From contig JAHZIX010000041.1 in the NCBI GenBank assembly GCA_022601195.1, forward strand, positions 102,668-166,667: DNA of 64,000 nucleotides, in the 5' to 3' direction. Position 1 is the stretch's first letter; every line of letters begins with the position of its first letter. Of the stretch, positions 4,153 to 62,134 are shown piece after piece. The position numbers and the translations under genes are program-made. The notes beneath the pieces are model-generated. The model worked only from the letters and a program-made list of their open reading frames with translations, had not been told where the DNA came from and did not search any database. The stretch is from Deltaproteobacteria bacterium. Its GTDB lineage: Bacteria > Acidobacteriota > Thermoanaerobaculia > Multivoradales > JAHZIX01.

Positions 4153-7100
4153 TTAGCCACACGGATTGCAATCGTCATCATCATCGTCGTCATCCCCTTC
4201 CTGCACGGGAAACTCAATGACACCCAGATCCGTGGTTCCACCAGCCACCGGGGGCACCGGGATCCCGATAGTGGACGTCACCAAGCCTTCCAGTCGCTGC
4301 GCCTCGGCGGCTCCAAATAGATCGCCATCAAGGGCTGGGAAGCTGCCAACGGAGAAAGCCCCACCGATTCCACTGGTCGTGGCGAATAGGTCGAAGTCGG
4401 AAGACACGCTCACTTCCGCGCCCACAATGGCTTCACCGAAATCGTCCTGAACCAGTCCTGTCACTGAAGTCCCAGGATCACCAGGGGGAGCGGCTGTTAG
4501 AACGAGAGTTCCTGCCGGTGTAGGTCCTCCTAGGATCGGCAAGAGTGGCACTGGGGTCTTGGCCCGGGAAGGAGTCCCATCCACCGTCGCGAAGGCGGCA
4601 ACATATAAGTGCAAGAAGGAGGTGCCGCCGGCAACGGGATCGGTACGCGTCGCGATCCGAGGCAACTGGAAGCTCCCATCGGCTGCTGAGATGGTCTCTT
4701 CCTTCACGAAGCGATTGTGGACACGTACCAAAGCTCCAGCGACCGGATTCCCGAGCTCATCTTCCACAACTCCGGTCACTTCCGTGCCGGGCACAGCGAA
4801 GTCCAGGCCGATGATCCCGATATCCACGATGCCACCCGGGTTCGGGAGTACGAGATCACTCACGGTTCCGGAGAAGGGATCTCCTCCGATCATCGCCGTT
4901 GCTTCCACCAGCAGATCACCCTCGTTGGTGGGAACCCCCGTGACGAGAAAGCTACCTTCGCTTGTTGTCGAGTCGGTACGGATCGTCGGACCCGAAGTGC
5001 CCACCGTTACCAGAGCGCCGATAACCGGTACTCCCACTGGATCGACGACGATCCCGGAAACGCTAGTCAGCGGATCGGCGACCACCGTCACGTCCACTGT
5101 TTCTGAAGCCGTCTCCTGCCCCGCCGTATCCCGAGCCGCCACGTGAATAGTGAACGGGCTACCAACAGCAGGGGCCGTGAAGGGACGCTGCCACGGCGGA
5201 CCTTCATTGGCGATGGCCTCGAAGGACCCATTGACGTAGAACAAGACGGCATCCACGCCGAGGTCGTCCGCTGCTCCAGCCAAAACACGGATCTGAGTTC
5301 CTTCCACCACCTCCGTCCCAGCTGTGGGCTCCAGCACCACCGCTTCCGGGGAAAAATCCTGCAGTACATTGAAGGTAACTGGCTCCGAGACGGTCTGTTG
5401 CCCAACATCATCGAAGGCTACCGCCGTCACCGTACGTTGCGGTAGATCGTCCGGCACGTCGTAGCCCAAGCGATACGGTGCCTCCAGATCGGAACCGACC
5501 AGGACACCATCCACCTGGAATTCCACCCGATCGATGGTGCCATTGTCCGCAGCTTCTGCCACGAGCACGATGAGGGCCAGCTCCGGCACCGTCTGCCCGG
5601 TGTAGGGAGACCGGACCGCTACCGTCGGGAAGTCATCTGGGTCGATGGGGACCACGACCGGCTCCGAAGTGGCAACGTTGCCACCAGCGTCCCGAGCGAT
5701 CGCGTGGAAGATGATATCCGGCTGCCCTACCGGCACGATCGTCTCTGCCTCGAAGGGGGACAGAAAGTCTTCGCCCAGAGACACTCCGTCGGCAAACAAT
5801 TCGACCGAACGAACAAGAATGTCGTCTTCCGCCTCGGCACGAACCCGGATGCGCTCACGCTCCGGTAGCAGCACCGAGTCATCCGGCGCGACAATCGCCA
5901 CCGTAGGCGCGATACCTGCCGTGTCGTTTGGCAAGATGTAACGCCCGATATGGAGACCGCCGTCGCCGTAATACCAATGGCGAGCCAGCAGGTAGACAAG
6001 GCCATCTTCCACCACCACATCCTGTCCGTTGTCGGCCCGAAAGCTTGGTGCTCCCGAGAAATCCAGCACCTCACTGAAAATCGGATCGCCATTGCCCAGT
6101 CGAAAGATCGGCACCGCGTTACGGAAAAGATAGTCCGCTGCCAGAGCCAATCCGTTCTCGTCTACTGTCACCTTGTTGAGCCCAAAGGCATTGCTCGTCG
6201 TTCCGGTAACGACGGGAGTGTTCGGAGTGCTCCAATCCACCACCCGCAACCCGCCCAGGGTTCGAGGTGATCCGCCGTCAGCGACCACTACCTGGTGGTC
6301 CACGAGCGCCAAACCGGATGAGCGTGAACGACCATTGGGACGCAGGTGAGTCTCGCCAACGATCTCCGGACTAGTGGGATCGGAAATATCCACCACTCGC
6401 AATCCACTGGCACCGACCGCCACCAGCACACTATCCCCAGAAATAGCCACATCTTGAACCAACGTTGACAACGAGACCGAGCCTTGCAGCACCGGAGCTA
6501 CTGGATTCGTTACATCGTAGATAGCGAGCGAGTCCACATTACCGAGGACAGCCAGAGCACCTTCCATAGCAACAGACATGGCAAACATCCCCGGTGGGCT
6601 CGAAGCGGACAGCTGAACGAGGCTACTGGGGTTCGAAGCGTCCGCGATCACCAAGCCAGCTTCACCTGCTGCCAGAAAGAGCAGACTATTGGACACCGTG
6701 ACATCCCGCACTGGAGCCGAGCTACTGCTGCCGGCAGCCGTAGGAAAGAAGGTCGAGAGGAGGAACGGTACTTCTGGGTCGGCCACATCCACCGCCTTGA
6801 CACCAGCCAGGTCCATCGCCGCGTAGACGATATTTCCATCGAGAGCGAGGGCCCGTGCACGACCGGAAAGCGGTAGGTAGGAGAGAGCTGTCGGCGAGAA
6901 ACTCACGACTTCTACAGTCGCCTGAGCGGAAAAGCCATTGTTCCCGGCGGTAACCGTTGTCGCCCCGTCCAAACCTGCAAAAACCCTCCCAGGGTCCGCT
7001 CCAAAGTTTGCTACGGTCAAGTCCTCGGAAGAGTACGTCGTGCCATAGGGGCCTGCGGTGATGTCGAGACGCGTGCCATCAATGAGATGGCCGGTCACGA

Positions 7101-8067
7101 CGAGTTGCCGTGAAGCATCCCCGAGAACCGCGTTGAAAAATATCTGGAAGACATCAGGGGCTACAGTGATCGAAGAGAGCGCTGCCGCCAGGTTGAAACT
7201 GGCTCCGTCCAAAGGGTCGCTACCCGTCTGGATCTCTAAACCATCGGAAAGACCATCGCCATCCGTGTCGAAAAGCAGCGGATGAGTTCCATGGATGACC
7301 ACCTCTTCGCCGTCCTTGAGGCCATCACCGTCGGTATCGGCATCGAAAGGGTCGAGACCTCTCTGGAACTCCTCCAGGGTCGAAAGCCCATCGGCATCCG
7401 GATCGAGGAAGGCATCTCCGGGGTCATTGGGGTCGAGCCCGTTTGCCAGTTCGTAGTCATCGGGGAGGCCGTCGCCGTCGGTATCACCGGAGGTCACAAC
7501 GGTCACTTGTAAAAGAGCGAGAGCGCCTTCGTTGGAGGCACTGATGAGACCGATCCCGCTGCTCACCGCTTGTACCAGGCCATCGGCACTCACAGTCACA
7601 ATCGCTGGATTGCTGGTGCGGTACAAGGTACCTGCCGTGGCGGCGGTCAGATCCCGGGTGGAGCTATCGGAATACTCCCCTGAGGTCTGGAGCTGTACCG
7701 TCTCGCCAATTTGCGACAGGGCCGTATTCGGCGCAGTCAGAGTCAATTCTCGAGGGATCGGTTCGGGCGCATCGAAAACGATGTCCGCGACTTGGATCAC
7801 TCCATTTGCCGGCACGTCGACGAAATTTGACTGTCCGGAAGTAACTACACCATCTCGAATGCAAGTCGCTCTCAAGCGTACCCGTCCGGCGCTTGCCGGT
7901 ACGTTGGGAAGCACCCAGGTTCCGTCCGGCTCTACCGGAGCCGTCCGATTGAGCGCACTGACGATGCAGGATTCATCGAGTTGAGCCTGGGCAGAAAAAG
8001 AGGCTACCAGTAGACCCAATCCAACCACCCCTCGAATGAGACGATTCCGAGACTTCTGAGTACTCAT
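4153..8067 (-). CDS. giant secreted multidomain protein (Ig-like, TSP3-like Ca-binding repeats, LVIVD repeats, carboxypeptidase-regulatory-like domains) with poly-Asp C-terminus
   Basis: Start re-set to ATG at 8067: RBS GGGAG lies 7 nt upstream and the encoded signal peptide is MSTQKSRNRLIRGVVGLGLLVASFSAQAQ. LVIVD-type repeats present (LVIADASNPSSL, LAIYDVTNPVAP, LRVVDISDPTSP, LRVVDWSTPNTP). D-x-D-x-DG-x-x-D calcium-type repeats present (DTDGDGLPDDYE, DADTDGDGLKDGEE, DTDGDGLSDGLE). C-terminus reads ...EGDDDDDDDDCNPCG*. Confidence 0.8.
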   Translation of the reverse strand: MSTQKSRNRLIRGVVGLGLLVASFSAQAQLDESCIVSALNRTAPVEPDGTWVLPNVPASAGRVRLRATCIRDGVVTSGQSNFVDVPANGVIQVADIVFDAPEPIPRELTLTAPNTALSQIGETVQLQTSGEYSDSSTRDLTAATAGTLYRTSNPAIVTVSADGLVQAVSSGIGLISASNEGALALLQVTVVTSGDTDGDGLPDDYELANGLDPNDPGDAFLDPDADGLSTLEEFQRGLDPFDADTDGDGLKDGEEVVIHGTHPLLFDTDGDGLSDGLEIQTGSDPLDGASFNLAAALSSITVAPDVFQIFFNAVLGDASRQLVVTGHLIDGTRLDITAGPYGTTYSSEDLTVANFGADPGRVFAGLDGATTVTAGNNGFSAQATVEVVSFSPTALSYLPLSGRARALALDGNIVYAAMDLAGVKAVDVADPEVPFLLSTFFPTAAGSSSSAPVRDVTVSNSLLFLAAGEAGLVIADASNPSSLVQLSASSPPGMFAMSVAMEGALAVLGNVDSLAIYDVTNPVAPVLQGSVSLSTLVQDVAISGDSVLVAVGASGLRVVDISDPTSPEIVGETHLRPNGRSRSSGLALVDHQVVVADGGSPRTLGGLRVVDWSTPNTPVVTGTTSNAFGLNKVTVDENGLALAADYLFRNAVPIFRLGNGDPIFSEVLDFSGAPSFRADNGQDVVVEDGLVYLLARHWYYGDGGLHIGRYILPNDTAGIAPTVAIVAPDDSVLLPERERIRVRAEAEDDILVRSVELFADGVSLGEDFLSPFEAETIVPVGQPDIIFHAIARDAGGNVATSEPVVVPIDPDDFPTVAVRSPYTGQTVPELALIVLVAEAADNGTIDRVEFQVDGVLVGSDLEAPYRLGYDVPDDLPQRTVTAVAFDDVGQQTVSEPVTFNVLQDFSPEAVVLEPTAGTEVVEGTQIRVLAGAADDLGVDAVLFYVNGSFEAIANEGPPWQRPFTAPAVGSPFTIHVAARDTAGQETASETVDVTVVADPLTSVSGIVVDPVGVPVIGALVTVGTSGPTIRTDSTTSEGSFLVTGVPTNEGDLLVEATAMIGGDPFSGTVSDLVLPNPGGIVDIGIIGLDFAVPGTEVTGVVEDELGNPVAGALVRVHNRFVKEETISAADGSFQLPRIATRTDPVAGGTSFLHLYVAAFATVDGTPSRAKTPVPLLPILGGPTPAGTLVLTAAPPGDPGTSVTGLVQDDFGEAIVGAEVSVSSDFDLFATTSGIGGAFSVGSFPALDGDLFGAAEAQRLEGLVTSTIGIPVPPVAGGTTDLGVIEFPVQEGDDDDDDDDCNPCG

Positions 8068-8353
8068 AGGCTCCCTGATCTCCCCGCTGAAACCTTCACG
8101 ACGATTCGCCTCCCCACCGAGAAAGAAGAAGGCGAGGTTGGCAAACGCAAGAGCCGATCCAACTTGATCCATCAACCTGGTTGTACAGTGCATCTACCTC
8201 GAGTGACCTCACGGCTCGATCCATCAAGGTTGCTTGCACAGAAAAAGGTCCTATTGCGACCGTCACGAGGCCCGGTGTCGCTACCATCCCCTGACGTTGG
8301 CACCTCGTCCCTCGAGGCCCCCTTTTCCAAATGTTCACCACCGTACCCACCTT

Positions 8354-9340
8354 TTACCCCGCAGGCCCCTTGCGGGCCTCGCCAACTTTCTCTAACGGTT
8401 CGATGGTAGGCCCGTTCTGGCTATCCTTCGGGGAAGAAGACGAACCCGCACAAGGGTCCTCGGCTGCTTTTCTTGGCTCCGCCCATTCGGGATACAAACC
8501 AGCCTGTAGTGCTGTCTTGGGATCGACTCCCACTGCCATGAGACGACCATAGGTCCAATTTCGTGCTTTCAAGCCCTGGACAGCCACGACTTCCAAAGAA
8601 GGAGTTCCGGGCATAGCGAACTCGCCAGCAGCTATTCTCCGGAGAACATCTTCTGCTTGAGAGCCTTCGATCTCCGAGATCCCTTCCACTGCCCAACGGC
8701 GAACCTGCGCGGAAGCCTCTTCCTCTGCAACTTGGAGGGCAGCCGTAAGGGCATCCAACCGACTCGGATGCTGCTTGAGCAGTCGGACCTTCCAAGTGCA
8801 CACCTTGGCCTGAAGCCCCGCGTCCGACTTGCGATAGTCGAAATAGACTTTCCGGATGAGGGGCAAGGCTTCTTCTACCCCAAGGCTGCAGAGTTCGTCG
8901 GCCGCCCAGCGCCGAGCCCTCTTCGCAGCAAATTCCTCGTAAGAGAAAGTGAGCAGCCGCGTCAGCTCTTCGATCCGTTCCGGCTCACTTTGAAGCTCTT
9001 GCACTCCAACTCTGGCGAACTCTTTTAGAATTGCGCTTCTCAGCAGCCTGATGTCTGGATCCTCGGAAGCTTGGCGAGCTAGACCTAGAAAGTAGGCCCG
9101 CTCGTTGAACTGGTGCTGAGCCCTCAAAAGCTGGCCGAGCTTCTCGACAGCATACTCACGGGCATGAAGCTTCTTCCCGGAGTCCTCGATGAGACCTTGC
9201 AGCTCTTGAATGTTCTGTTGAAGCTTGCCCTCACAGAAGGCACGCTCATACAACACATCTACCTCTTGCTTATGGGGATCAATCAAGCCAGCTCGCCCAT
9301 GGCAGGGCAACCCGCACACCAAGAAGAGCGCCACTGCCAT
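8354..9340 (-). CDS. hypothetical protein (alpha-helical, HEAT-like) encoded between the two giant secreted-protein genes
   Basis: Long ORF. Start placed at the internal ATG at 9340, giving N-terminus MAVALFLVCGLPCHGRAGL. This avoids a 96-nt overlap with the upstream gene, but the start is uncertain. No recognisable catalytic motif. Confidence 0.5.
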   Translation of the reverse strand: MAVALFLVCGLPCHGRAGLIDPHKQEVDVLYERAFCEGKLQQNIQELQGLIEDSGKKLHAREYAVEKLGQLLRAQHQFNERAYFLGLARQASEDPDIRLLRSAILKEFARVGVQELQSEPERIEELTRLLTFSYEEFAAKRARRWAADELCSLGVEEALPLIRKVYFDYRKSDAGLQAKVCTWKVRLLKQHPSRLDALTAALQVAEEEASAQVRRWAVEGISEIEGSQAEDVLRRIAAGEFAMPGTPSLEVVAVQGLKARNWTYGRLMAVGVDPKTALQAGLYPEWAEPRKAAEDPCAGSSSSPKDSQNGPTIEPLEKVGEARKGPAG

Positions 9341-9384
9341 CACTACAATCCATCGAATATTCGTCACCAGTTGATCCCTTTGAC

Positions 9385-12300
9385 TTAAGGCGCCTGTTGC
9401 GTTGCGAATTTGATCGCATCCATCTCGAGAGCCAGAAAATTGAATGTCTCGTCGAAAACAGCATCTCCTTGGTACATCCAATCGATGGTCTCATTCGCGG
9501 CTTGATTGCAGGTTTCTCGAACATCCATCGTGTCCAGAAGTACATCGCAAGGACATACTTCAGCCGGCACTGTATCCACCAACCAATCCTGATCGTCGTC
9601 ATTGTTCGGAGATTCAGGAAGGTCATCCGGAGATTCCAGGTTCAAAATCGACAGGAGATCCTGGTATCCATGGCGAGACTCGTGCAAGACGGTCACGACC
9701 AAGGCCTCGTTCAGACTAGGAGCACAGGCACTCGGCAGCATCTCGCCGGGTACTCGAATGAACACACTATTGAAGAGGTCTATCTGCATCTCCAGCTGGC
9801 CAGAATGATCTGGATCTACCCCGGCGATCGCATTACTTTCCCCTTCGAAGGCTTCTTGACGATAGCCAGTGATGGTAGCGAGCACATCTGAAGTGGGCCT
9901 ACTTTTTCCGTACTCTTCAAAAATATCTAGCATTCTCGCTTCGAACCAATCGGGGAAGGCACCTCGAGACCGCGGATCGACCTGTTCATTGTCTACCCAT
10001 TGCTCAACATAAAGTGGCTCGGCCCGGAACATCTCATAATTCAGCACTACAAAAACGCCTTCCGGAGGCTTTTCACCATCGATGAACTCGATCTGTGACT
10101 TCACCTCAAAGGTTGCTGTCCCTGAAAATGAGATCTCTACCGAAGATGGAAACTCACCGGCATTGCGATGATAAATCCGGTCGTCACTCTGCTCATCGAT
10201 TTCAACAGTTCCTTGGAAGTCGTGAATCGGTGTACCCGTACCCGATCGAACAGCTGTTACTCGAAGCACAGTATCTTCTGTATACAGACCGTCGTCGCTA
10301 ATCTCTGTGGGTGAGTCCTGGGTCAGGCGCATTTGTACCTGATAGACATTCACGATCATCCCTCTGCGAATCTTGACGTCCGAACACTCCAGACATCGAA
10401 GCTCCGCCTCGACCAAGAAATATCCATCGGCAAGATAATCGTGGGAAACGGTTTCACCGATCTCCTCGCCACCATCTCCAAATTTCCAACGCACTTCGAC
10501 GTTTGGGCAGTCATGGTTTGCAGGCAGAATCTCTGTTGAAAAAGAAACTGTGGCCACCCCGGATTCATCTCGCTCGATCTCCAGCATCACGTCTTCACCA
10601 TTGCCCTCAATGCGCAAGTCCGAGATGCCGATGGCTGATCCTTTGCACTCCGGAAAAATCGGGTTGGTGAATCGGCAAATATCCTCCGACGTGCAGGAAT
10701 CATTGTCGTCACAGGGGCAGCTCCCGAGATTCAACCCTTGTCCTTCAAACTCAAAGGGCTCTGTAAGGTCGGTTGGGCACCCTGGAGAGCAGCCAATTCC
10801 GTTACAGATAAAACACGGTTTGCAGTTATGGGGTGTCCCTACTGCCGCTGGATTCCCTCCGCAATGCCAGCCAGCCTTGACAATACCGACTCCAGGGTCG
10901 GACTCGAGGACAGTTCCGTCCACACTGACCGTTCCTGGTCCGATACTCACGAACTGCCCCAGGTCGTGGTCGAAGGAGTACAGCTCTGTGCTCTCGCCGG
11001 GCTGTAGCTCCTCGACATTGGGCAAAGTGAATTTCGCTGGCGGATCGAAGACCGCTCCGGCAGGCTGGATCGTCAAAATGAAGCGGGGCTGTAGTCCGAA
11101 GCTTGGCACCATGGGGACCTTGTCGCCGTGTACCAGCGTCGCCGAGACCACCCCGTTCTGCCCGCCGTCCGGGAAGGTCACACTTCCGGGAGCGACTTCT
11201 AGAGAGAATCCTGGCAGCTCCGGCAAAGTCAGAACACCCCCCACTGAGGCACTCACCGCCAAGCCACGCGCGGTATCCAACGGCAGCAGGTAAATCGGCA
11301 TCCCCAGCGTGTTGTCCTGCCCGGGAACAGTGGTCAGCTCGAATTCCAGATGAGGCCAATCGCCAGGCCGCGAAGCCGTGTTTCCGTCTACTTCTAGGTG
11401 ATAGGTACCAACTGGAACCGGATGGAGCCGGAAGATCCCCTCCGTATCCGTTTGGACGGAGAGTGCGGTACCGGGCAGAGATACGGTGACGCCGGGAACA
11501 GGCTGGTCAGAGTTGTCGACGACCAGGCCACTGATCGAGGTATCGGCAGGATCTCCCGCCGCTTTTCCGGAAGCGACGAAGCCTGCCACCGGGACCTGCG
11601 GAAAATCTGGAAGATCTACCTCGACAAGGTTGTTGGCCACCCCTTCCGCAGGCCCTAGAGTCAGGTTTGCGGCTACGCGACCGTTCGCATCGGTGATACC
11701 TATCAGTTCTGCTTCTCCGCTTCCAAAAGCACCTCCCCCTTGTACGGCTCGGAGACGCACTGATATGCCAGGGAGGCGATTAAACCCACTATCCGTAACC
11801 ACGGCTACGAGGGGCTCCGGAAGTGCCTGATTCACGGCACCCGTTTGTTGGCTTCCGCGATCCATGATGAGGTTCGAAGGAGGCCCGGGGAGCGCTGATG
11901 CCAGAAAGGTCAGGTGCCCCGGAACACCCCTTGCCGAGACCTCGACCCGTTGATTGCCAACGCCGACTCGCGTGCCCAATCGGAAAGTAGTTGCAGCCTG
12001 CCCATCGGGCCCCGTTACGAGCGCTCGTGTGCGCTCACCAGACCCGAGTACTCCATTCGTTCTCACGGCCGAAAACACCACCTGCTCTCCAATCACTGGG
12101 TTGCCATCGGAATCTTCCAGTCTCACAACAAATGGTAAAGCAAGATCCGTTCCGATCTCGGCCTGCTGGAGATCTCCTGAGACTCTTATCAGACGCCTCG
12201 TGGGCTGAGGGAGGCGCTCAACTCCGATCATTGTGCTGGTCTGATTCCCATTGGTGTCCACAGCTTGAACCGTCAACGTGTTGGTTCCGATTGCCAGGGA

Positions 12301-14001
12301 CAGATTCGGCAGCAGAAAGCTACGGTTCACGACCACGGCTTCCTGACCGTTGACCAGGACGGTGACGTCCTCGGCATTCGTCGTACCGGGCCCCACATCA
12401 TTGACCAGGCCGGAAACCGAAATCGTCTCTTCGTAAAGCTCTGCGCCGTTCTGCGGGTAATCGACCCGCACTCGGGGAGAAGTGTCGTCCCGGAACACTC
12501 GTACCGTTGCCACGGCCTGTCCACCGGCCGGGTCGGTGGCTACGGCCGACAGCCTTGTCGCCCCAGGGCCCACCGGTACGTTCGGGGCGGTAAAGGAAGT
12601 TCCCGTGATGGCCGCGACGATTCCGCTGACCGTCACGCTCGCAACTGGATCACTCACCGTCCCCGTGACATCGACGGACGAGACTTGAAGGAGGTCACCT
12701 TCTCGAGGCGTGTCAATCGTCACCGTAGGGGCGTCGACCCGTCGTAGCGGCAAGGCGACCTCGGCCTCATTCCCGGCTCGATCCGAGGCTTGCAAGATCA
12801 CTTCTTGAGGGCCACTTACCAGGTCGACCTGGGTATCGAAGAATCCATCGTTTACCGGCACAGGCACACCCGCCACCTCGAAGCTGGCCAACTCGCGATC
12901 GTCCTCGACGAGACCAACGATTCGAACCGTCGGCGTATTGACGACTTCATCTGCTCTTGGAGCGATAACTTCAATCACGGGAGGTTCGGTATCCAGAATA
13001 CCCACCACCGTGGTGTGTTCCGCCATACCGAGGCGATCCGTGGCGAGAGCCAGAATGAAATTGTCGCCTGGCTCCAGCTCTATCTCTGCTTGGAAAGCAC
13101 TCCCAGACACCACTGCCTCAACACCATTCACTAGGACGGAGGCGACCGCATCTGAATCCGTCACCATCCCCTGCACGAGCATCTGGGAATCACGGGTGAG
13201 GAATCCTGGCGGCGGATCCAGGATAGCCACTGACGGCGGCACCTGGTCGAGAACGAATTCGAATTCCCAACTGCCTTGACCAGCGTTATCACTGTCGTCC
13301 CAGATCAGCGCATGGATCTGATGAAGCCCGAGATCAAGCTCTGATCCGAGCCCGCAGATGGCCTCGACGCTCCCGACCGCGCAACGCACCGAAACATCTT
13401 CTCCATCAAGAAATGCACGAAAGCTCTCCGGTACGATCTTGCCACCAATGTCGGCGTATTCGAAGGTCAATTCTGCCGGCGCATAGTTAAAGACAACCGG
13501 TTCAGGGGCTGTCAACGTTATTACGGGAGGCGTGCTGTCCGGCGTATCCGTGGCCGCTGCTGCCCACCGAAAAAGATCGCCCGACTCGAAGCCATCAGCA
13601 AAGATGAGCTCTCCCGGTGGCGCGGGGGGGCTGATGACGTCAAAGAATCGGATCGCTTCAGCCGTACTGCCATCATCGCTCGAGATGGAGGCTCTGATCT
13701 CATGCTGTCCGTCGGTAAGGCCACTCAAAGCACAGGAGGCGAAAAGTGGAGTGACAGTGCATTGGGTTGTGACCTCGGCTACGTCGACGAAGACCTGGAG
13801 AGTCTCCGTAACGATGGCGGCATCGGGGTCGGAGTAAATTAGAAATAGGCCTGGATTCGGACCGGTCTGCTCACCCTTCGCTGGTTGCCGGATCTCGATG
13901 CTTGGGACGGCCTGAGCCATTTTGGGAAGGAATCCCCATATCCATACGCCCAAGAGCAAGAGAACTCGGCTAGATCTGCGAGCGTTCCAACTAGTGATCA
14001 T
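9385..14001 (-). CDS. giant secreted multidomain protein (Ig-like/Big, carboxypeptidase-regulatory-like, Cys-rich module, PKD domain) with C-terminal HExxH-containing domain
   Basis: 1538 aa with signal peptide MITSWNARRSSRVLLLLGVWIWGFLPKMAQA. A PKD-type motif is present (VRWKFGDGGEEIGETVSHDYLADGYFLVEAEL). A Cys-rich segment (CKPCFICNGIGCSPGCP...CPCDDNDSC) is present. The C-terminal region contains VTVLHESRHGY (HExxH). Confidence 0.8.
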   Translation of the reverse strand: MITSWNARRSSRVLLLLGVWIWGFLPKMAQAVPSIEIRQPAKGEQTGPNPGLFLIYSDPDAAIVTETLQVFVDVAEVTTQCTVTPLFASCALSGLTDGQHEIRASISSDDGSTAEAIRFFDVISPPAPPGELIFADGFESGDLFRWAAAATDTPDSTPPVITLTAPEPVVFNYAPAELTFEYADIGGKIVPESFRAFLDGEDVSVRCAVGSVEAICGLGSELDLGLHQIHALIWDDSDNAGQGSWEFEFVLDQVPPSVAILDPPPGFLTRDSQMLVQGMVTDSDAVASVLVNGVEAVVSGSAFQAEIELEPGDNFILALATDRLGMAEHTTVVGILDTEPPVIEVIAPRADEVVNTPTVRIVGLVEDDRELASFEVAGVPVPVNDGFFDTQVDLVSGPQEVILQASDRAGNEAEVALPLRRVDAPTVTIDTPREGDLLQVSSVDVTGTVSDPVASVTVSGIVAAITGTSFTAPNVPVGPGATRLSAVATDPAGGQAVATVRVFRDDTSPRVRVDYPQNGAELYEETISVSGLVNDVGPGTTNAEDVTVLVNGQEAVVVNRSFLLPNLSLAIGTNTLTVQAVDTNGNQTSTMIGVERLPQPTRRLIRVSGDLQQAEIGTDLALPFVVRLEDSDGNPVIGEQVVFSAVRTNGVLGSGERTRALVTGPDGQAATTFRLGTRVGVGNQRVEVSARGVPGHLTFLASALPGPPSNLIMDRGSQQTGAVNQALPEPLVAVVTDSGFNRLPGISVRLRAVQGGGAFGSGEAELIGITDANGRVAANLTLGPAEGVANNLVEVDLPDFPQVPVAGFVASGKAAGDPADTSISGLVVDNSDQPVPGVTVSLPGTALSVQTDTEGIFRLHPVPVGTYHLEVDGNTASRPGDWPHLEFELTTVPGQDNTLGMPIYLLPLDTARGLAVSASVGGVLTLPELPGFSLEVAPGSVTFPDGGQNGVVSATLVHGDKVPMVPSFGLQPRFILTIQPAGAVFDPPAKFTLPNVEELQPGESTELYSFDHDLGQFVSIGPGTVSVDGTVLESDPGVGIVKAGWHCGGNPAAVGTPHNCKPCFICNGIGCSPGCPTDLTEPFEFEGQGLNLGSCPCDDNDSCTSEDICRFTNPIFPECKGSAIGISDLRIEGNGEDVMLEIERDESGVATVSFSTEILPANHDCPNVEVRWKFGDGGEEIGETVSHDYLADGYFLVEAELRCLECSDVKIRRGMIVNVYQVQMRLTQDSPTEISDDGLYTEDTVLRVTAVRSGTGTPIHDFQGTVEIDEQSDDRIYHRNAGEFPSSVEISFSGTATFEVKSQIEFIDGEKPPEGVFVVLNYEMFRAEPLYVEQWVDNEQVDPRSRGAFPDWFEARMLDIFEEYGKSRPTSDVLATITGYRQEAFEGESNAIAGVDPDHSGQLEMQIDLFNSVFIRVPGEMLPSACAPSLNEALVVTVLHESRHGYQDLLSILNLESPDDLPESPNNDDDQDWLVDTVPAEVCPCDVLLDTMDVRETCNQAANETIDWMYQGDAVFDETFNFLALEMDAIKFATQQAP

Positions 14002-14877
14002 GCCTCTTCTCTTTTCCGTTCACCACATCCCCCAATTACCTTTTTCCACCACTCAAAGCTACGAAACCGACTACGGAACTCCAAGGCCATCGTGTCTCCA
14101 TCGGTAAATAGCGAGGCCACCATAGAATTCCTCTCTGACTGAGCGATCTTTAGCTCCACAGCTAGGCTCCCTCATGGCCTCTACAAAGAAACGCGCTTTT
14201 CTTCTCCTCACTGGAATCATCGGCTGGTACATTCTTCGGATACTGGGTGTCTCCCGTGCACCTCAGAGACACCTATCTGGCAAGCCTGATCTAGAAACTA
14301 CGTGGCAGGTTTATCTTGCAAATGAAGAAGGCCATGCCTACAACTGGCGTAGCTCACGTGCAGCGCCGCCCAGAATGACTCGAAGACGACCGTTGTTCGT
14401 TGGCGCCAATCCCTGTTGCTGTTCCGCAGAATCGAGCACCTGACAGACTGAGCGAAACCTACCCAGAGAGGCATCGCATAGGAAAAACAGCCAACAGCTT
14501 CCACGCAGCTGATGGAAACGGTCTGGGCAGAGGCTCCATCGAGCCAGCTACTTTGTCTCTTCCCACCCGCCCCATCTCGTTCTCTGCACAGCCCGCCAGG
14601 GGCAGCAAAACTCGACGAACAGGCGCTTAGGTTCTTGGCAAAAGGGGCGAAAGAAACCGATACCGACCGACCTCAAAGCGAGAGGCCGGTCCCCAAAGGA
14701 AAAACTTTCTTTCAACTGGGTGGGTCAGGTGTTGCAGTGGGTACCCGCTCAACCCTCCGGGGGAGCAGCTCCTTCCAGCAAATAAATGAAAGGGCAATCA
14801 GGCAATCACCTTGAACCTCTGGCGACTCCGGCTCACTCAAAACCCTCGAGCAACTTCTGCTAAGGTCCGGGGGCTCC

Positions 14878-15489
14878 ATGACTACGGAATCTCACCAGAT
14901 CACCCAGCTCCTCCAGCAGCATCGCGAAGGTGACCCGAAAGCCCTCGAGAGCCTGATCCCGCTGGTCTACCCCCAATTGCAGCGCATGGCGAGGGTGCAA
15001 CTGCGGAAGGGAGGCTCCCTTACCCTTGACACCGTGGGGCTGGTCCACGAGGCGTATTTACGCCTGGTGAAGGATATGGAAGTGCATTGGCAGGATCGCG
15101 AACACTTCTTTGCCGTCCTCACGCGAGCCATGCGATTCATCGTCATCGACCAGCTTCGGGAGCGGCAAGCTCAAAAGCGCGGTGGAGATGTCGAGCGAGT
15201 CACCCTCGACGCCGAGCTCGTAGGCGACCTCTACCCCCTCGACGCCGCTCTCACCGTGAGCCGAGTCGTCGACCAGCTAGCGACTTTCAACGAGAGACTC
15301 GCCAAGGTGGTGGAATGTCGCTTTTTCGTCGGAATGGATGACCGAGAGATCGGCGAAGCTTTGGGACTTTCCGAACGCACGGTGCAGAGGGATTGGCTCA
15401 AGGCTCGGGCCTGGCTGCACCGGGCCTTGGAAGAAACCCGCCGCTCAGGTGGATTGGAAGCCTCCCAGAAGACCCCCGAGAACCGCTGA
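14878..15489 (+). CDS. ECF-type RNA polymerase sigma factor of the Ser/Thr-kinase-associated family (TIGR02999 / PF07638-like)
   Basis: 203 aa. N-terminus ITQLLQQHREGDPKALESLIPLVYPQLQRMARVQL...TLDTVGLVHEAYLRL and C-terminal region-4 HTH (ERTVQRDWLKARAWL) match the Pirellula-type ECF sigma family, which is typically encoded beside Ser/Thr kinases. Confidence 0.8.
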   Translation: MTTESHQITQLLQQHREGDPKALESLIPLVYPQLQRMARVQLRKGGSLTLDTVGLVHEAYLRLVKDMEVHWQDREHFFAVLTRAMRFIVIDQLRERQAQKRGGDVERVTLDAELVGDLYPLDAALTVSRVVDQLATFNERLAKVVECRFFVGMDDREIGEALGLSERTVQRDWLKARAWLHRALEETRRSGGLEASQKTPENR

Positions 15490-15687: not shown

Positions 15688-18327
15688 CTAGAGGGATGGC
15701 GGCTCGGTCCATGGGAGGTAACGCTGAGTGGCAACCTCGTCACCGCGAGCCTGATGAAATTGCACCAGAGTAGCTGCGGTTTGGCGAAGCGCCAGGCTAG
15801 CGGGAGCCTGCCTTCCATGGAGCTCTTCGAAGGCCGACTCCAGAGCCGTGAGGGCTTCTTCCCTTCGACCCTGGGCCAGGAGCAGCTGCCCCTCCAGGCT
15901 CCGCACCATCGCTTGCACCAAATGCCCCTTGGGGGTGATTTCGGTAACGATCTTCTGAGCCGCCTCGAGGTGCTCTGCTGCCCCCTCGAGGTCTTGCCGT
16001 GACAACGCTATCTGCAACAGAGTGCCATGCATGACCGCCGTTCGGGTGCGGCCCCCGGGGTTACCTCGTGAATATATCTCCAGAGCCTGCCGAGCCAGAG
16101 GCTCTGCCTCCTCCACCGCTCCCCGAGCCACCAATACCTGCGCTAAGTTGTCGATACTGTGAGACCGGTTGGGATGGGAGGGGCCATAGGCGAGCAGACT
16201 GAGCTCCATCGCTTCTCGAGCGGTCACTTCGGCCTCCTCGAGGAGTCCCCTCTGCAACCGTGCCTGAGTGAGATGCCCGAGAACACTCACGATGGCGAGA
16301 CGATCCTCGGTCTCAGCGGCACGATGAATGTCTAAAGAACGGTGAAAGAGGGACTCGGCCTCGGCCGCCTTGCCCCGCCGCACCAGAGCGCCACCGAGAT
16401 AGTTCAAGGAGGTGGCGACAGTAGGATGATGGTCCCCTAGATGCTGGCGGTAGAGATCCAGACTCCTCCTCCGCAAAGCCTCGCAACGAGCATCGTGCCC
16501 GAGAGAGCCCAAGGCGTGGCTCAGAATCGTCTCCCCCCGGGCAATCTCCAGGGGCTCCTCAGGAGCTACGATCTGGAGAGTCTCCACACTTTCCCGAAGC
16601 AATTTCGCGGACCGATCTAACTCACCGAAGGAAGCCAACATCTCTCCTAGGAGGCGTTGGCTCAACGCCACCGATTTGTGCCTTCCCGGATGCAGCCGCT
16701 GCCGCAATACCAGCGCTTCCTCGGCCAGAGGGCGAGCATCCTCGTAACGCCCTAAATTCAAGTAGGCACGTCCCAGCGCATCCATCAAAGCTGCTTGGAC
16801 CTCTGGCGAATCCGCGAGCTCTTCTCCGATACGGGCCGCGGCGGGATCCAAGAGTGTTTCTACGATGGCCTTTTCGCCAACCGGATCGGTCTTTGCCCGC
16901 TCCAACACTTCGACCAACACCTGGCTGATTCGCTGTGCCACCGCGGCTTCCTGCTCCGCAACCCCTCTAGCGCGGGTGGCCTCTCGGGCCTGCCAAAGAG
17001 CAGCGACCAAAGCCAAGGAGACGGCAGCTACCGCCAGAGCCGCCAGAGTCGTCACGACGGCATGGCGCTTCACCCACTTACGCACCAGATAGGTCGGGGT
17101 ACTGCGTCGAGCGGTCACGGGAAGGTCTTCGAGCCAACGCCTCAAGTCCTTCCCCAGCTGCTCCGCCGTTGGGTAGCGAGCTGACGGATCGGCAGCCAGA
17201 GCCTTCGAAACGACTGCGTCGAGATCTCCGGCCACCTGCTTGCGCAACTGCGAGATTCGGGTAGACCGTAGCGCCGCTCGTGAAGATTGGGTCGACGATT
17301 GGCTCCCGTCGGCCTTGGAGAGGCTGTCAGAGGCCAGGGGAGCATTGCCTTTCAAGACCTGAGCGAAGAGAGACTCAGTTCCCGCGGTGGTCTCATAGGG
17401 TAGCCGGCCAGTCACCAATTGGAAGAGGACGACACCCAGAGAGTAGACATCACTACTCGTGGTGACCGGTTGGCCCTCGATCTGCTCCGGACTGGCGTAG
17501 GAAGGGGACAACAACCGCGCCGAAGAAGGGCCCCTGGAATCTATCCCGCTCCTCGGAGCCGACTCCGAGACGCTGGCGATTCCAAAGTCGAGAAGCTTCA
17601 CCACTCCTTCATGGGTGACCAGAATATTCCCTGGCTTGAGGTCTCGGTGGACGATCAAGTTCTGGTGGGCATATTGAACCGCCCGGCAGACCGCTCCAAA
17701 GAGATCCAACCGAGCCCTGATATCGAGGCGTTTCTGATCGCAGTAGCGTTCGATGGGCAATCCATCTACTAACTCCATGGCGAGGAAGGGGCGCCCTAGG
17801 GAATCCACTCCCCCGTCCAGCAACCGGGCGATATTCTCGTGATTCAGGCCGGCGAGAAACTGACGTTCCTGCTCGAAGAGGCGAATTGCTTCCGGGGAAA
17901 GACTTCCTGCCGGAAGGAGCTTGAGAGCGACTTGCTGCTCGAAAGCACCATCCGCTCGATCAGCGCGGTAGACGATCCCCATCCCGCCGCTACCAATCTG
18001 TTCCACCAACCGATAGGCACCCACCCGACGATCGGGAACCGCCTCACCAGACGCCAGGTCTCGTACCCAGGTACCGAGGCGGTTCAGCAATGCATCGCTC
18101 TCTGCGACTGGCCCATCGGCGGCAACTCCGTAGCCTTCCAGGAGGGAAGCGCAAGGACCCGTGAAATGAAGGAGCTCCGCCAACTCATGGCGCAGTTCCT
18201 CATCTCCCACTCGAGACACGAAGAGGCCACGCTCCTCCCTAGGCAGCTCCAACGCTTCCTCCATCAGAGCATCCAACACGGCCATGCGCTCGGAATCCAA
18301 GCTAGCGATCTCCTCCCCCAAATTCAA
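15688..18327 (-). CDS. serine/threonine protein kinase with transmembrane segment and C-terminal TPR repeats
   Basis: TTG start with GGAG RBS. Kinase motifs VHRDLKPGNILV, DFGIA and SPEQ are present. One TM helix (VVTTLAALAVAAVSLALVAALW) is followed by ~450 aa of TPR-like repeats. Confidence 0.9.
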   Translation of the reverse strand: MNLGEEIASLDSERMAVLDALMEEALELPREERGLFVSRVGDEELRHELAELLHFTGPCASLLEGYGVAADGPVAESDALLNRLGTWVRDLASGEAVPDRRVGAYRLVEQIGSGGMGIVYRADRADGAFEQQVALKLLPAGSLSPEAIRLFEQERQFLAGLNHENIARLLDGGVDSLGRPFLAMELVDGLPIERYCDQKRLDIRARLDLFGAVCRAVQYAHQNLIVHRDLKPGNILVTHEGVVKLLDFGIASVSESAPRSGIDSRGPSSARLLSPSYASPEQIEGQPVTTSSDVYSLGVVLFQLVTGRLPYETTAGTESLFAQVLKGNAPLASDSLSKADGSQSSTQSSRAALRSTRISQLRKQVAGDLDAVVSKALAADPSARYPTAEQLGKDLRRWLEDLPVTARRSTPTYLVRKWVKRHAVVTTLAALAVAAVSLALVAALWQAREATRARGVAEQEAAVAQRISQVLVEVLERAKTDPVGEKAIVETLLDPAAARIGEELADSPEVQAALMDALGRAYLNLGRYEDARPLAEEALVLRQRLHPGRHKSVALSQRLLGEMLASFGELDRSAKLLRESVETLQIVAPEEPLEIARGETILSHALGSLGHDARCEALRRRSLDLYRQHLGDHHPTVATSLNYLGGALVRRGKAAEAESLFHRSLDIHRAAETEDRLAIVSVLGHLTQARLQRGLLEEAEVTAREAMELSLLAYGPSHPNRSHSIDNLAQVLVARGAVEEAEPLARQALEIYSRGNPGGRTRTAVMHGTLLQIALSRQDLEGAAEHLEAAQKIVTEITPKGHLVQAMVRSLEGQLLLAQGRREEALTALESAFEELHGRQAPASLALRQTAATLVQFHQARGDEVATQRYLPWTEPPSL

Positions 18328-44708: not shown

Positions 44709-46982
44709 ATGAAGAAATACAGGTTTTCGACGCTGCGAGCCCTGCCGGCAGCCCTGATTTTGCTAAGCCTGCCCTCCGGAGCGCCTTGGCTGGCCGAAGA
44801 AGAGACTTTCCGGCTGAGCCTGGACTCCATCTCTTTCGGATTCTTGGAGACCGATGTAACGACAGACTCGGCAAAGTTCCAGGAGTACCGAGATATAGGA
44901 AGCGGTTTTCAGCTGACCGACCTACGCCTGCGGGGGATCGGCGCCAACGGCGACCGAGTTCTGACCCTGACCGCCGACAACGTGGGCCGGGACGATGCTC
45001 GCTATGGTTTCTCCTATGGGATGTCCGGAAAGTACTCTCTGGAAATCGACTACAACAAGATCCCGCACCGCTTCGGCAATAATGCGACCCTGCTTTGGAA
45101 TCGCACGGGTCCTGGAACCTGGGCCATCTCAGACGCGGTTCAAAGCCAAATTCAGGGCGCCTTGGAGGATCGATTCGCCCTCGACCGAAGTGGTGTCAAC
45201 TTCCCTTTCCTCAGCGCTGTGCTGGCCCCCCATCTGAGCGCCGCCAACAAGAGCGACCTCGGACTCCAGCGGGACCGAACCCGCGTTACCCTCGAGCTGG
45301 GTAAGCTGGGGCACCTCGCTTGGACCGCCGAGGTGCGCCACGAGAACCGGGATGGACTGCGGCCATTCGGCGGCGACTTTGGTTTCAACAACGCTCAGGA
45401 GATCCCAGAGCCCATCGACTACGACACCACCGATGCGGAGGTCCGCGGCGAGTGGAACGGGGCGAAGGGAGGGGTGAACTTCGGCTACCGTTACTCCACC
45501 TTCGAGAACGACATCAGTACGCTGGTCTGGGACAATCCGTTTCGCGGCTCCGACTCCACGGATCCGAGGGCCTACTTGGGTCCCGGCTTCCTCTCCATCA
45601 ACGGCCCCACCCAGGGTCTCGTCGACCTGGCGCCGGACAACGAGGCCAACCTCGCCTTCGTCTCGGGCCGCACCAAACTGGGCGCTGGCTGGTGGCTCAA
45701 CGGCACCCTCAACTACAACGTCATGACCCAGAACGATCCCCTGCTGCCCTACACCCTGAACTCAGCCATCCAGGGCATCGACCACGAGACCGGCACCACC
45801 TTTGACGCCGCGGACCCCAACAACCTACCGGTGCGTAACGCCGACAACGAGGTTGAGGTCCTGAGCCTCGCCGGCAATGCCGGCACCCGTTTCGGTGACG
45901 ATTGGAAGCTCACTTTCCGCTACCGTTACTACGACTACGACAACACCTCGCCCCGCATCGAGTTCCCGGGCTACGTACGCATGCATTCAACCTGGCAAGA
46001 GGTCCCCCGCATCACGGTGCCCTATAGCTATACGAGGGACGACCTCGGCGCCGAGGTCGCCTGGGAGGCTACTTCCAAGACCACCCTGGCCCTGAGCTAC
46101 CGCCTATTGAGCTGGGATCGCGAGTTCCGGGAGACGGAGAGTACCGACGAGGACATCCTCGAGCTGACCCTCGACCAGCGCCTCAGCTCCAAGGCGACAT
46201 TGCGGGCCGGTTGGGAAACGGGAACCCGCTCCAACGATGGCTACGAGGTCGAGGCACAGGAGCTCACCTTCCTGGAGCCGGAAGGCATCAACAACCAGCC
46301 GGGGCTGCGAAAGTTCACCCAGGCCGCCCGCGACTTCGATGACTACGACCTTTCCCTGAATCTCTTCCCGACCCCCGAATGGAACGTCATCTTCGGGTAC
46401 TCCGGCCGGAACGAGGACTACCCGGACAGCCAATTCGGGCTGATCGCCGACGACATCCAGCAGCTTAACTTCGAGATCGGCTACACCCCTGGGGCCGGAT
46501 TCGGCTGCTACCTCTTTGGCCACCGGGCCGACCGCGACGTCCTGCAACGCGCCCGCCAGTCTGGAGGCACCCTCTCCACAGACCCGCGCAACGACTGGCA
46601 AGCGGACCTAGAAGAGACCATCGACACCTGGGGCTTTGGCATCAACGGCGAAAGGGATCATTGGTTTTGGGATGCCTCTGCCCGTTGGTCCAACTCCGAC
46701 GGCGAAGCGGATTTCTTCACACCGGCTGGGGGTAGCCCTTCGTCGGCGGTGGACTTCGACAACTATGAAGACATCGAGCTGCTCGCCTTTCACCTGAAGG
46801 TGCGCTACGACATCCGTGATGGCGCCTCCGTGGGCCTCTCCTACCTCTTCGAGGACTACACCATCGACTCCTTCATCCTTCAGGGCCTCCAACCCTACCT
46901 GCCCTCGGCTCTCCAGCTAGCAGCCAGCAACGGCAGCTACGAGGGCAACGTCATCGGACTCCATCTGAAATTCGCTTTCTGA
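44709..46982 (+). CDS. MtrB/PioB-family decahaem-associated outer-membrane beta-barrel protein
   Basis: Starts 12 nt after the decahaem gene. 757 aa with signal peptide MKKYRFSTLRALPAALILLSLPSGAPWLA. Abundant alternating aromatic/hydrophobic-polar strands (YSLEIDYNKIPHRFGN, TLALSYRLLSWDREF, GLSYLFEDYTID). C-terminal ...GLHLKFAF ending in Phe is the usual OMP barrel signature. No haem motifs. Confidence 0.75.
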   Translation: MKKYRFSTLRALPAALILLSLPSGAPWLAEEETFRLSLDSISFGFLETDVTTDSAKFQEYRDIGSGFQLTDLRLRGIGANGDRVLTLTADNVGRDDARYGFSYGMSGKYSLEIDYNKIPHRFGNNATLLWNRTGPGTWAISDAVQSQIQGALEDRFALDRSGVNFPFLSAVLAPHLSAANKSDLGLQRDRTRVTLELGKLGHLAWTAEVRHENRDGLRPFGGDFGFNNAQEIPEPIDYDTTDAEVRGEWNGAKGGVNFGYRYSTFENDISTLVWDNPFRGSDSTDPRAYLGPGFLSINGPTQGLVDLAPDNEANLAFVSGRTKLGAGWWLNGTLNYNVMTQNDPLLPYTLNSAIQGIDHETGTTFDAADPNNLPVRNADNEVEVLSLAGNAGTRFGDDWKLTFRYRYYDYDNTSPRIEFPGYVRMHSTWQEVPRITVPYSYTRDDLGAEVAWEATSKTTLALSYRLLSWDREFRETESTDEDILELTLDQRLSSKATLRAGWETGTRSNDGYEVEAQELTFLEPEGINNQPGLRKFTQAARDFDDYDLSLNLFPTPEWNVIFGYSGRNEDYPDSQFGLIADDIQQLNFEIGYTPGAGFGCYLFGHRADRDVLQRARQSGGTLSTDPRNDWQADLEETIDTWGFGINGERDHWFWDASARWSNSDGEADFFTPAGGSPSSAVDFDNYEDIELLAFHLKVRYDIRDGASVGLSYLFEDYTIDSFILQGLQPYLPSALQLAASNGSYEGNVIGLHLKFAF

Positions 46983-58579: not shown

Positions 58580-59118
58580 CCTTCCTCCTCTATCGAGGCC
58601 GGTCGAGCCGAATAGCTCTTCCGGCATTCATGGGAAGTGGCCACCGACAGTCGGGGCCACCAAGAACTCCTCGCGGACAGACCCCCTAACGGGCCTGGTC
58701 AACGAAGGGAGATTAGGTTGCGAAAAGAGACCAAAGGCCGTGGATGGTGCTGGTCTCCAAAATCGACCCACGGCGCAAACGGCCTGGATTGGGTCGAAGT
58801 ACAGCCCCTCTATGCGCAAGGAAGCGCTAGGGGGCCGAGAGCTTGGGCGCCTGGAACTACACATAAAAAAAGTAGTAGCGAACAAAAACAACAATATTTC
58901 AAATCATCGTAAGATGCCAATAAGTACCCGAATTATAGCCCCACCGATAGAAATTGCAACATTAAACATCTTCTTTTTAGGAAACCGGAGACTCTAGGGA
59001 ACTTTCAGGAGCAGCGAGAGGCAGCCAGGATTCTGTGATTCCAAGGTCAAGTAGTCATCGAGGCACCGACGACGGACGATTCCCCTATCGGCGGGACTCA
59101 CTCATCACGGGGCTTCAC

Positions 59119-61729: not shown

Positions 61730-62134
61730 ACCCCGTCCTCCTCTACCTTTCCCGTGACCTGCGAGCCCCTCCCAGTCGCCCCGAAACAGATACCCACCTT
61801 GCTTAGCTACTCGAGGCGACCGAATCCTTCGCCTCGAGCAGAATTACCTGAATCCGACCCCCACCTCGACCTCGACTCGACCTAGAACGTCCCCGGGTAA
61901 CAACACGAATCACACTGGGAAACCTGGAACTACCAGAGGTCTAGCACCTATTCCTGAAAGCAAATTTTTCTTAAATAGAACACCCTAGCGACGCTCCGAA
62001 TTCTGCTTCACGGCTGTAGATCTCCTCGCCAGGAAACCATCTCCGATTGGATTGCCGGTCCCCACCCCAAAAGTGAGCCGTTAATGCTCTGTTCATCTGC
62101 TCTTCGCTATGTTGCACCTGGATTTGGAGATCCT

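Follow-up and report, generated by a model that had tools for sequence, protein, structure and literature searches.

A candidate polymorphic-toxin-like locus from an Acidobacteriota genome, with a zincin-like C-terminal module and an exported HEAT-like partner

The window analysed here is a 64,000-nucleotide stretch (positions 102,668 to 166,667) of the 173,677-bp contig JAHZIX010000041.1, which belongs to a metagenome-assembled genome (MAG) deposited at NCBI as 'Deltaproteobacteria bacterium' (GCA_022601195.1) and placed by GTDB in the Thermoanaerobaculia of the Acidobacteriota. It contains three open reading frames (ORFs) on the minus strand, called G1, G2, and G3, which lie at the coordinates given in a preliminary description of the DNA and are deposited, with generic annotations, as MCH9650153–55. 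The subjects of this text are the C-terminal module of G1, the adjoining gene G2, and the question of whether the two form an effector with its immunity protein. The stop codon of G1 is separated from the start of G2 by about 17–45 nt, and G2 from G3 by about 290 nt. It is plausible that the three genes form an operon. Their shared orientation, and the signal peptides and stacked domains of the two giant proteins, were noted in the preliminary description and agree with the ORF coordinates and Pfam matches.

9385..14001, minus strand: G1, a 1538-aa Sec-exported multidomain protein (NCBI MCH9650155.1, 'carboxypeptidase regulatory-like domain-containing protein')
8354..9340 (or 9367), minus strand: G2, a 328-aa exported HEAT-like protein (337 aa in the NCBI call)
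4153..8067, minus strand: G3, a 1304-aa Sec-exported protein (NCBI MCH9650153.1), the start of which is backed by the NCBI call and by orthologue alignment

G1 can be divided into a signal peptide, a long scaffold or stalk, and a C-terminal unit composed of two domains.

13909..14001, minus strand: predicted signal peptide, aa 1–31 (ending ...KMAQA, followed by V), read from the sequence by eye
10393..13908, minus strand: scaffold or stalk, aa 32–1203, with four Glucodextran_B domains, Big_1, CarboxypepD_reg, an unassigned beta region, a Cys-rich module, and PKD
10042..10344, minus strand: Ig-like beta-sandwich, aa ~1220–1320, first half of the C-terminal unit, with AlphaFold2 strands of predicted local distance difference test (pLDDT) >90
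9388..10014, minus strand: zincin-like alpha/beta domain, aa ~1330–1538, of a family without a Pfam, NCBIfam, or PDB match
9670..9684, minus strand: HESRH, aa 1440–1444 (H1440, E1441, R1443, H1444), invariant; Y1446 and Q1447 follow, giving HExRHxYQ
9580..9603, minus strand: acidic loop NDDDQDWL (N1467, D1468, D1470, D1472, L1474), conserved across the family
9415..9426, minus strand: EMDA on the C-terminal helix (E1526, D1528, A1529), with E1526 87% and D1528 100% conserved

The N-terminus of G1, MITSWNARRSSRVLLLLGVWIWGFLPKMAQA followed by V, resembles a signal peptide. The Pfam matches of the scaffold comprise four Glucodextran_B domains (E 2e-35), Big_1, CarboxypepD_reg (7e-11), and, above its cut-off, PKD (E 2.6e-5; aa 1151–1199, window 10405–10551), which is preceded by the Cys-rich module (aa ~1040–1130, window 10612–10884). 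The scaffold is 45–48% identical to those of two related loci, L011 and L012, up to aa ~1203, and 56% identical to that of L016 over aa 787–1055 of G1 (269 aa). Between CarboxypepD_reg and the Cys-rich module lies a region of ~160 aa (aa ~880–1040, window 10885–11360; LPELPGFSLEVAPGSVTFPDG...GVGIVKAGWHCGG) that has no Pfam family and recurs at the N-termini of two fragmentary family members, P0006 and P0094. The similarity of the L016 scaffold stops just past this region.

The last ~320 aa of G1, the Ig-like sandwich together with the alpha/beta domain, form a module that we name after its HExRH motif. An exhaustive profile search of 1.84e9 representatives (clusters at 50% identity) revealed a family of 250 proteins, 105 of them at E<1e-30, nearly all of which are derived from metagenomes. 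The exhaustive search was needed because a word-indexed protein search with the G1 C-terminus found two relatives, or 25 when a profile was used. In 80 of the 86 full-length cases, at most five residues separate the end of the module from the C-terminus, and the N-terminal regions ahead of it range from 0 to ~2500 aa. Since the H, E, R, and H of the HExRH motif are invariant in all 86 full-length domains, the HExxH is not a chance motif. Little or no variation occurs at D1470, D1472, D1490, D1517, and D1528, conservation exceeds 90% at Y1446 and Q1447, and R1495, G1512, E1526, and a pair of cysteines (C1426 and C1498) are also conserved. The loop with the consensus NDxDxDxL, formed by N1467, D1468, D1470, D1472, and L1474, is a possible Ca2+ site or metal ligand, and E1526 and D1528 of the EMDA segment are candidates for the third metal ligand. 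The Ig-like sandwich has conserved residues of its own, E1242, E1270, and S1302, and its fold matches in the PDB are Ig-like domains.

The preliminary description found the HExxH region to be without an assigned family, and the searches bear this out for what is now a conserved C-terminal domain: Pfam and NCBIfam have no family over aa ~1210–1538. No Pfam model reached its threshold in 26 diverse module members, six of which matched DUF6782, a 'putative metallopeptidase family', weakly (best E 0.03). DUF4157, which we take to be the model of the PVC-metallopeptidases, matched no module member even at E<=10. Sequence and profile searches of NCBIfam and the PDB gave no family match to the module, the PDB returning only chance matches of flavivirus E proteins to the Ig part. 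When the family profile was aligned to the M4 protease encoded in the window using hhalign, HExxH was placed on HExxH with a probability of less than 1%, and the alignment was not taken as evidence. The literature on 'HEARH' or 'DUF6973', the latter a domain found at L012, contained nothing relevant.

The structure of the module was confidently predicted by AlphaFold2 from a 26-sequence alignment. The whole unit scored a pLDDT of 92.7 and a predicted template modelling score (pTM) of 0.89; the catalytic part, modelled on its own, scored 85.7 and 0.86. The predicted alpha/beta domain is composed of a backing helix (1351–1364), a small sheet, the HExxH helix, the long NDxDxD loop, a beta-hairpin, and a C-terminal helix (1521–1536) that bears E1526 and D1528. 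In the model, this layout is that of a minimal zincin. The HExxH lies on a confidently predicted helix of 18 residues (aa 1433–1450, pLDDT ~93), not in a loop. The earlier proposal of a candidate protease thus stands, as the topology is zincin-like and the top structural matches, although not significant, are zincins; no match to a known peptidase family was found. The Foldseek matches of the catalytic part in the PDB, none of them significant, were to anthrax LF (TMq 0.38), EcxA, M32, M3, GtgA, and thermolysin, and those in BFVD, likewise not significant, were to SprT-like proteins (probabilities of 0.94 and 0.87), M34, and IrrE. The whole unit matched AsaP1 in the PDB, again not significantly (E 5e-3, TM-score 0.20). 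The membership in the aspzincins (M35) to which this match pointed was rejected on account of the low TM-score and the absence from the module of the conserved Asp that aspzincins have ~9 residues after the second His. The HExRH module is an uncatalogued family of zincin-like domains.

An alternative is that the HExRH domain is no peptidase. The domain could be another metalloenzyme, such as a hydroxylase of the HExxH type, or a non-catalytic module that binds metal or Ca2+ in adhesion, as is suggested by the lack of a significant match to peptidase families, by weak matches that include the HExxH oxygenase ChlB (8s5f, E 0.67) and the NCBIfam aKG-HExxH hydroxylase (E 0.082, one of 26 members), and by the resemblance of the conserved NDxDxD loop to Ca-binding motifs. 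The invariant Arg points the same way, as an arginine inside HExxH is unusual among zincins. However, none of the 86 domains lacks the catalytic Glu of HExxH, and the weak fold matches are mostly to peptidases from several zincin families. In addition, the HExRH domain is Sec-exported and has a conserved cysteine pair, unlike the known aKG-HExxH hydroxylases, which are cytoplasmic enzymes that tailor ribosomally synthesized and post-translationally modified peptides. We consider a non-peptidase role quite improbable.

G2 has a hydrophobic N-terminus and matches HEAT models weakly: HEAT_PBS with 21.7 bits (cut-off 20.9) and HEAT_2 with 25.9 bits (cut-off 27.7; E 1.3e-5). HEAT_2 is also matched by the G2 orthologues of L011 and L012 (E 7e-5 and 1e-3). 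A G2-like gene is located directly downstream of the module gene in all nine cases for which the sequence is available, which are the window, L003, L005, L006, L008, L009 (twice), L010, and L011. The similarity of these genes ranges from E 1e-25 to 4e-4 (L003 4e-4, L008 1e-22, L010 4e-20, L011 3e-25). The G2 homologues have ~290–330 aa and nearly all carry an N-terminal signal sequence. From its constant position, the G2-like protein appears to be an obligate partner of the HExRH module. The label 'HEAT-like hypothetical' in the preliminary description agrees with the weak HEAT matches and misses this role. G1, G2, and G3 of the window are 45%, 27%, and 49% identical to their counterparts in L011, and the corresponding identities between L011 and L012 are 76%, 51%, and 79%. 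Judged by these values, G2 evolves faster than the other genes of the cluster.

G1-, G2-, and G3-like genes are adjacent in four further loci (L005, L006/L007, L011, and L012), which supports the linkage of the genes proposed earlier; in L016, only the scaffold and G3 are present. L011 and L012, from two Acidobacteriota MAGs, encode G1-like proteins that are 76% identical over ~1,090 aa, to the end of PKD. Past PKD, the protein from L011 has the HExRH module, whereas that from L012 has DUF6973 (E 1e-8), with a weak match to Wnt (E 0.0055). The DUF6973 tip is followed by a new gene for a 177-aa lipoprotein, and the G2-like gene is retained. The scaffold with the DUF6973 end spans positions 3254–8092 of L012, and the gap at 8093–8895 yielded no remnant of the HExRH module. 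In L016, the scaffold continues into an unrelated end of ~520 aa, which is followed by two unrelated genes; there is no G2-like gene, and the G3 orthologue is kept. These two tip replacements are all that were seen, and both are on MAG or metagenome contigs. Judging from the aligned sequences, one and the same scaffold can bear the module or, in its place, other C-terminal domains, a property that the preliminary description had overlooked.

The G1-like protein encoded at positions 1–4380 of L016 ends in this ~520-aa region, which has no Pfam match and displays, by eye, a G.C..W...H...D pattern. A papain- or transglutaminase-like identity was guessed from reading the sequence and found no support in Pfam. 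The two genes that follow (265 and 357 aa) share a Cys-rich C-terminus of ~90 aa.

Copies of the partner gene also occur apart from an intact module. L005 contains three G2-like paralogues and a 60-aa module remnant (E 2e-5), so that two of its G2-like genes are extra copies, and L012 has a G2-like gene without a module. L008 (1–16983) contains two tandem four-gene cassettes, each encoding a TPR protein, a protein with an HExxH end, a HEAT-like protein, and a PMP/disaggregatase-like protein of ~615 aa with a dockerin-like end; a gene for a 1189-aa secretin follows them. In the first cassette, the shared N-terminus carries a divergent end of the HELKH type (HELKHRELYQ), which was missed by the family profile, and the HEAT-like gene is divergent as well. 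The next gene repeatedly encodes a large secreted protein rich in beta structure, which is G3-like in five loci and PMP-like in the two cassettes of L008, and which in L009 is a CarboxypepD_reg protein of 908 aa. The clusters of L011 and L012 adjoin genes for a relaxase, a type IV (T4) coupling protein, RadC, PIN/UPF0175, and a methylase (L011 14010–21344; L012 1–1814 and 13774–17047), which suggests that they are carried on an integrative mobile element.

The conserved scaffold, the swappable tips, the co-varying downstream genes, and the orphan copies are hallmarks of polymorphic toxins. The gene downstream changes with the tip: it is G2-like after the module in 9 of 9 cases, a lipoprotein gene in L012, and another set of genes in L016. 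The exchange of the module and its pairing with G2 suggest a module of the effector/immunity type more than they do a plain surface protease. We therefore propose, with moderate confidence, that the G1 tip and G2 on their conserved scaffold make up a polymorphic-toxin-like system, in which a putative metallopeptidase tip is paired with an immunity or inhibitor partner.

A serious rival makes G1 an ordinary metalloprotease, extracellular or anchored to the surface, that serves in nutrition or matrix remodelling, and G2 a periplasmic inhibitor or steric chaperone dedicated to it; G3 could then be a co-secreted adhesin or a processed substrate. Such an arrangement would account for the export of the G2-like proteins and the strict position of their genes next to the module, for family N-termini built as Ig-like stalks of a kind typical for adhesins and extracellular enzymes, and for the recurrence of a large beta-rich secreted protein as the next gene. 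It has parallels in the serralysin AprA with its periplasmic inhibitor AprI/Inh and in the lipase LipA with its foldase Lif, where an exported enzyme is likewise followed by a co-oriented, exported or anchored, all-alpha specific partner of ~300 aa. However, G2 shows no sequence relationship to these partners, and the G2-like proteins persist, multiply, and diverge in L005 and L012. The retention of the G2-like gene in L012 despite the replacement of the HExRH module, the three G2-like copies with a module remnant in L005, the attachment of DUF6973/Wnt-like or other unrelated ends to the same scaffold, each with new downstream genes, and the evolution of G2 at a much faster rate than its neighbours are not expected of the foldase or inhibitor of a housekeeping enzyme. 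We regard the ordinary protease as possible and somewhat doubtful.

Several observations weigh against the toxin-like system, and some of them favour the ordinary protease. The zincin matches are below significance in both structure and sequence (best PDB E 0.26, BFVD E 0.025), and there are only two tip replacements. The four-gene cassettes of L008 are duplicated whole, which suggests a functional unit larger than a toxin-immunity pair. A Pfam scan of 30 full-length family members found none of the toxin-delivery domains RHS, PAAR, LXG/WXG, TPS/FHA, and MuF, and the domains it did find were only Ig-like, PKD, CarboxypepD_reg, Glucodextran_B, and similar ones. The surroundings of the locus in the window are ordinary chromosome, with genes for topoisomerase IV, LepA, FTHFS, an MtrB/PioB porin, multihaem cytochromes, and an M4 protease, and its flanking genes are not those of mobile elements.

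The zincin-like toxin tips of known polymorphic toxins include Tox-MPTase1–5, HopH1-like, ALF-MPTase, and PVC-metallopeptidase, the last with the signature HExxHxxQ...E, and a Wss1-like relationship has been noted for the Tox-MPTases (Zhang et al. 2012, PMC3482391). Like the Tox-MPTase tips, the G1 tip is a small HExxH domain of the alpha+beta type that forms the very end of large exported proteins of variable architecture, and its SprT-like fold matches parallel their Wss1-like relation. The segment HESRHGYQ...EMD fits the PVC-metallopeptidase signature, in the form HExxHxxQ...E/D. As in polymorphic toxin systems generally, the scaffold is conserved while its tip is exchanged, and the gene directly downstream is small and conserved. 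The family proteins with signal-peptide-like N-termini correspond to the 'T2SS' class, and Imm-HEAT is listed with other toxins, Ntox34 and Tox-REase-7 (PMC3482391). Unlike the Tox-MPTases, the HExRH module matches neither the Pfam Tox-MPTase and DUF4157 models nor other peptidase models at E<=10. It also differs from them in its invariant Arg, in a long insert between the metal-binding helices (the NDxDxD loop and the beta-hairpin), and in the obligatory Ig-like domain ahead of the catalytic domain. In addition, the scaffolds of the G1 type are Ig-like stalks, not RHS, PAAR, or LXG, and the partner is an exported HEAT-like protein.

Min-Wnt/Lipocone tips are accompanied by immunity proteins that are lipoproteins or have transmembrane segments (Burroughs et al. 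2025, PMC12419801). The DUF6973 tip and the lipoprotein gene of L012 occupy the place of the HExRH module and G2 in the window, and they could be a Min-Wnt/Lipocone toxin tip with its immunity protein. DUF6973, which is not mentioned in PMC12419801, would correspond to Min-Wnt on the basis of one weak Pfam match to Wnt. The proposed immunity protein of the window is exported, as are those of the Min-Wnt/Lipocone tips, and an action outside the cytoplasm is thereby implied, whereas the tip of the window itself is zincin-like, not a Lipocone.

G3 is a full-length member of the LVIVD-TSP3-Big_7 family of 'Ig-like domain-containing' proteins of Acidobacteriota/Thermoanaerobaculia. Its N-terminus resembles a signal peptide (...LLVASFSAQA, followed by Q), and its Pfam domains are Big_2, TSP3_bac (3.5e-16), LVIVD (3.4e-18), three Big_7 (3.6e-27), and two or three CarboxypepD_reg (6e-14). 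More than 2,655 homologues were found at E<=1e-10, mostly in Acidobacteriota/Thermoanaerobaculia MAGs, and many of them are 40–59% identical to G3 over 95–99% of its length. The unchanged presence of G3 while the G1 tip changes links it to the scaffold, not to the tip.

7078–7353, minus strand: TSP3_bac repeats of G3, aa ~239–330 (Pfam)
6187–6555, minus strand: LVIVD propeller of G3, aa ~505–627 (Pfam)
4153..4194, minus strand: D8-CNPCG tail of G3 with the stop codon (EGDDDDDDDDCNPCG, then stop), the end of the sequence

The poly-Asp-CNPCG end of G3 can be compared with the ends of its closest orthologues.

G3 of this window: EGD8CNPCG, then stop
P0153, 59% identical to G3: DDGGGCGDGGCG, then stop
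P0154, 59% identical to G3: DEGGPCDPCG, then 20 aa
P0155, 56% identical to G3: EDGGEPCDPCGLEGS, then stop
G3 orthologues of <=51% identity: Gly/acidic tails without Cys

The preliminary description held that this terminus does not match known sorting signals, which is correct: NCBIfam found no sorting domain in G3, and the tail has neither a hydrophobic nor a basic segment, unlike signals such as LPXTG, PEP-CTERM, GlyGly-CTERM, and MYXO-CTERM, in which a motif precedes a hydrophobic helix and a basic end, or the T9SS CTD, which is a folded domain; signals of these kinds are shared by many proteins of a genome. The further idea that poly-Asp and CNPCG form a new C-terminal sorting or processing signal, read by a dedicated enzyme, might draw on the motif C-x-P-C-G or C-G-x-x-G-C-G, which recurs after an acidic/Gly linker in the three closest orthologues (P0153, P0154, and P0155). 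However, its distance to the C-terminus varies (P0154, P0155), and it is absent from the orthologues of <=51% identity and from ~115 other listed homologues. No other ORF of the 64-kb window has a similar end, and in 185,579 genomes and 241 million metagenome records, scans for the DNA pattern detected no acidic run with CxxCG or CxPCG before a stop codon elsewhere; three scan matches were unrelated and end in Trp codons (TGG) instead of a stop. The D8 run occurs within its family in G3 alone, and it was such uniqueness that the preliminary description had named as speaking against a signal. We consider this idea hardly credible. The alignments indicate that the poly-Asp run is unique and that the CxPCG element is restricted to a clade and has no fixed position, so the end of G3 would be a lineage-specific low-complexity tail of no wider significance.

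The C-termini across the G3 family are strikingly variable. Longer relatives of ~1540–1770 aa (P0162, P0163, P0171, P0177, P0195, P0224, P0232, P0233, P0247, P0257, and P0258) have a conserved Cys-rich end module of ~45 aa, which finishes ...C.DLG.....CDFFCGS before the stop. Another subfamily ends ...A.EI..CR..L..AA..QG..C.P before the stop.

A gene for an ECF (extracytoplasmic function) sigma factor of the PF07638 type (14878–15489, plus strand) is divergent from G1, and beyond it, on the same strand as G1, lies a gene for an 879-aa Ser/Thr kinase with TPR repeats (15688–18327, minus strand). The same arrangement of the two genes is present in the Logan contig L004, and they might regulate the G1–G3 cluster. 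An ORF of 53 aa that overlaps the start of G1 (13998–14159) appears to be spurious. A scan for promoters and terminators was uninformative, and tblastn against PLSDB plasmids gave no match. Elsewhere in the window, the MtrB/PioB-type outer-membrane porin (44709–46982, plus strand) and a multihaem cytochrome of the c7/c3-like type (62084–63607, plus strand) point to a capability of the organism for extracellular electron transfer. A 299-aa hypothetical protein without a Pfam match (MCH9650190.1; 59119–60018, minus strand), encoded just upstream of the M4 thermolysin-like protease gene (56738–58627, minus strand), ends in PDDDDSDDDDDDEDDD before the stop codon, which is the second poly-acidic C-terminus in the window.

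In the proposed toxin-like system, G1 would be a Sec-exported stalk of Ig-like domains with an exchangeable C-terminal tip. The tip of the window would be the ~320-aa unit, in which an Ig-like sandwich is joined to a small metalloenzyme domain with a zincin-like fold, with the catalytic site formed by H1440, E1441, and H1444 on one helix and a third metal ligand, probably D1528 or E1526, provided by the C-terminal helix. G2 would be an exported HEAT-like solenoid that binds the tip and neutralizes it outside the cytoplasm, as an immunity or inhibitor protein. If G2 acts there, the target of the tip would be extracytoplasmic, in the cell envelope or among surface proteins. G3 would be a constant, co-inherited secreted partner, perhaps with a role in adhesion or delivery. 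Metal binding, proteolysis, the binding of G2 to the tip, the antagonistic use, and the nature of the target are all inferred. More speculatively, and on balance rather unlikely, the G1 scaffold and G3 could constitute a new Sec-dependent delivery platform of Acidobacteriota-like bacteria, with interchangeable envelope-targeting tips, each accompanied by an exported immunity protein. The tips so far would be the HExRH zincin, the Min-Wnt/Lipocone-like domain, and at least one more.

Exchangeable effector domains can occur at the C-termini of the large 'Ig-like domain-containing' proteins that are common in MAGs of the Acidobacteriota type. If the toxin-immunity interpretation is true, the logic of polymorphic toxins would extend to an uncultured and little-studied group of bacteria and to a scaffold without a known delivery domain. 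G1 and G2 would then provide a new protease-inhibitor pair and a functional handle for thousands of uninformative annotations. The delivery platform, if it exists, would represent a mode of interbacterial antagonism without known T5, T6, T7, or RHS machinery.

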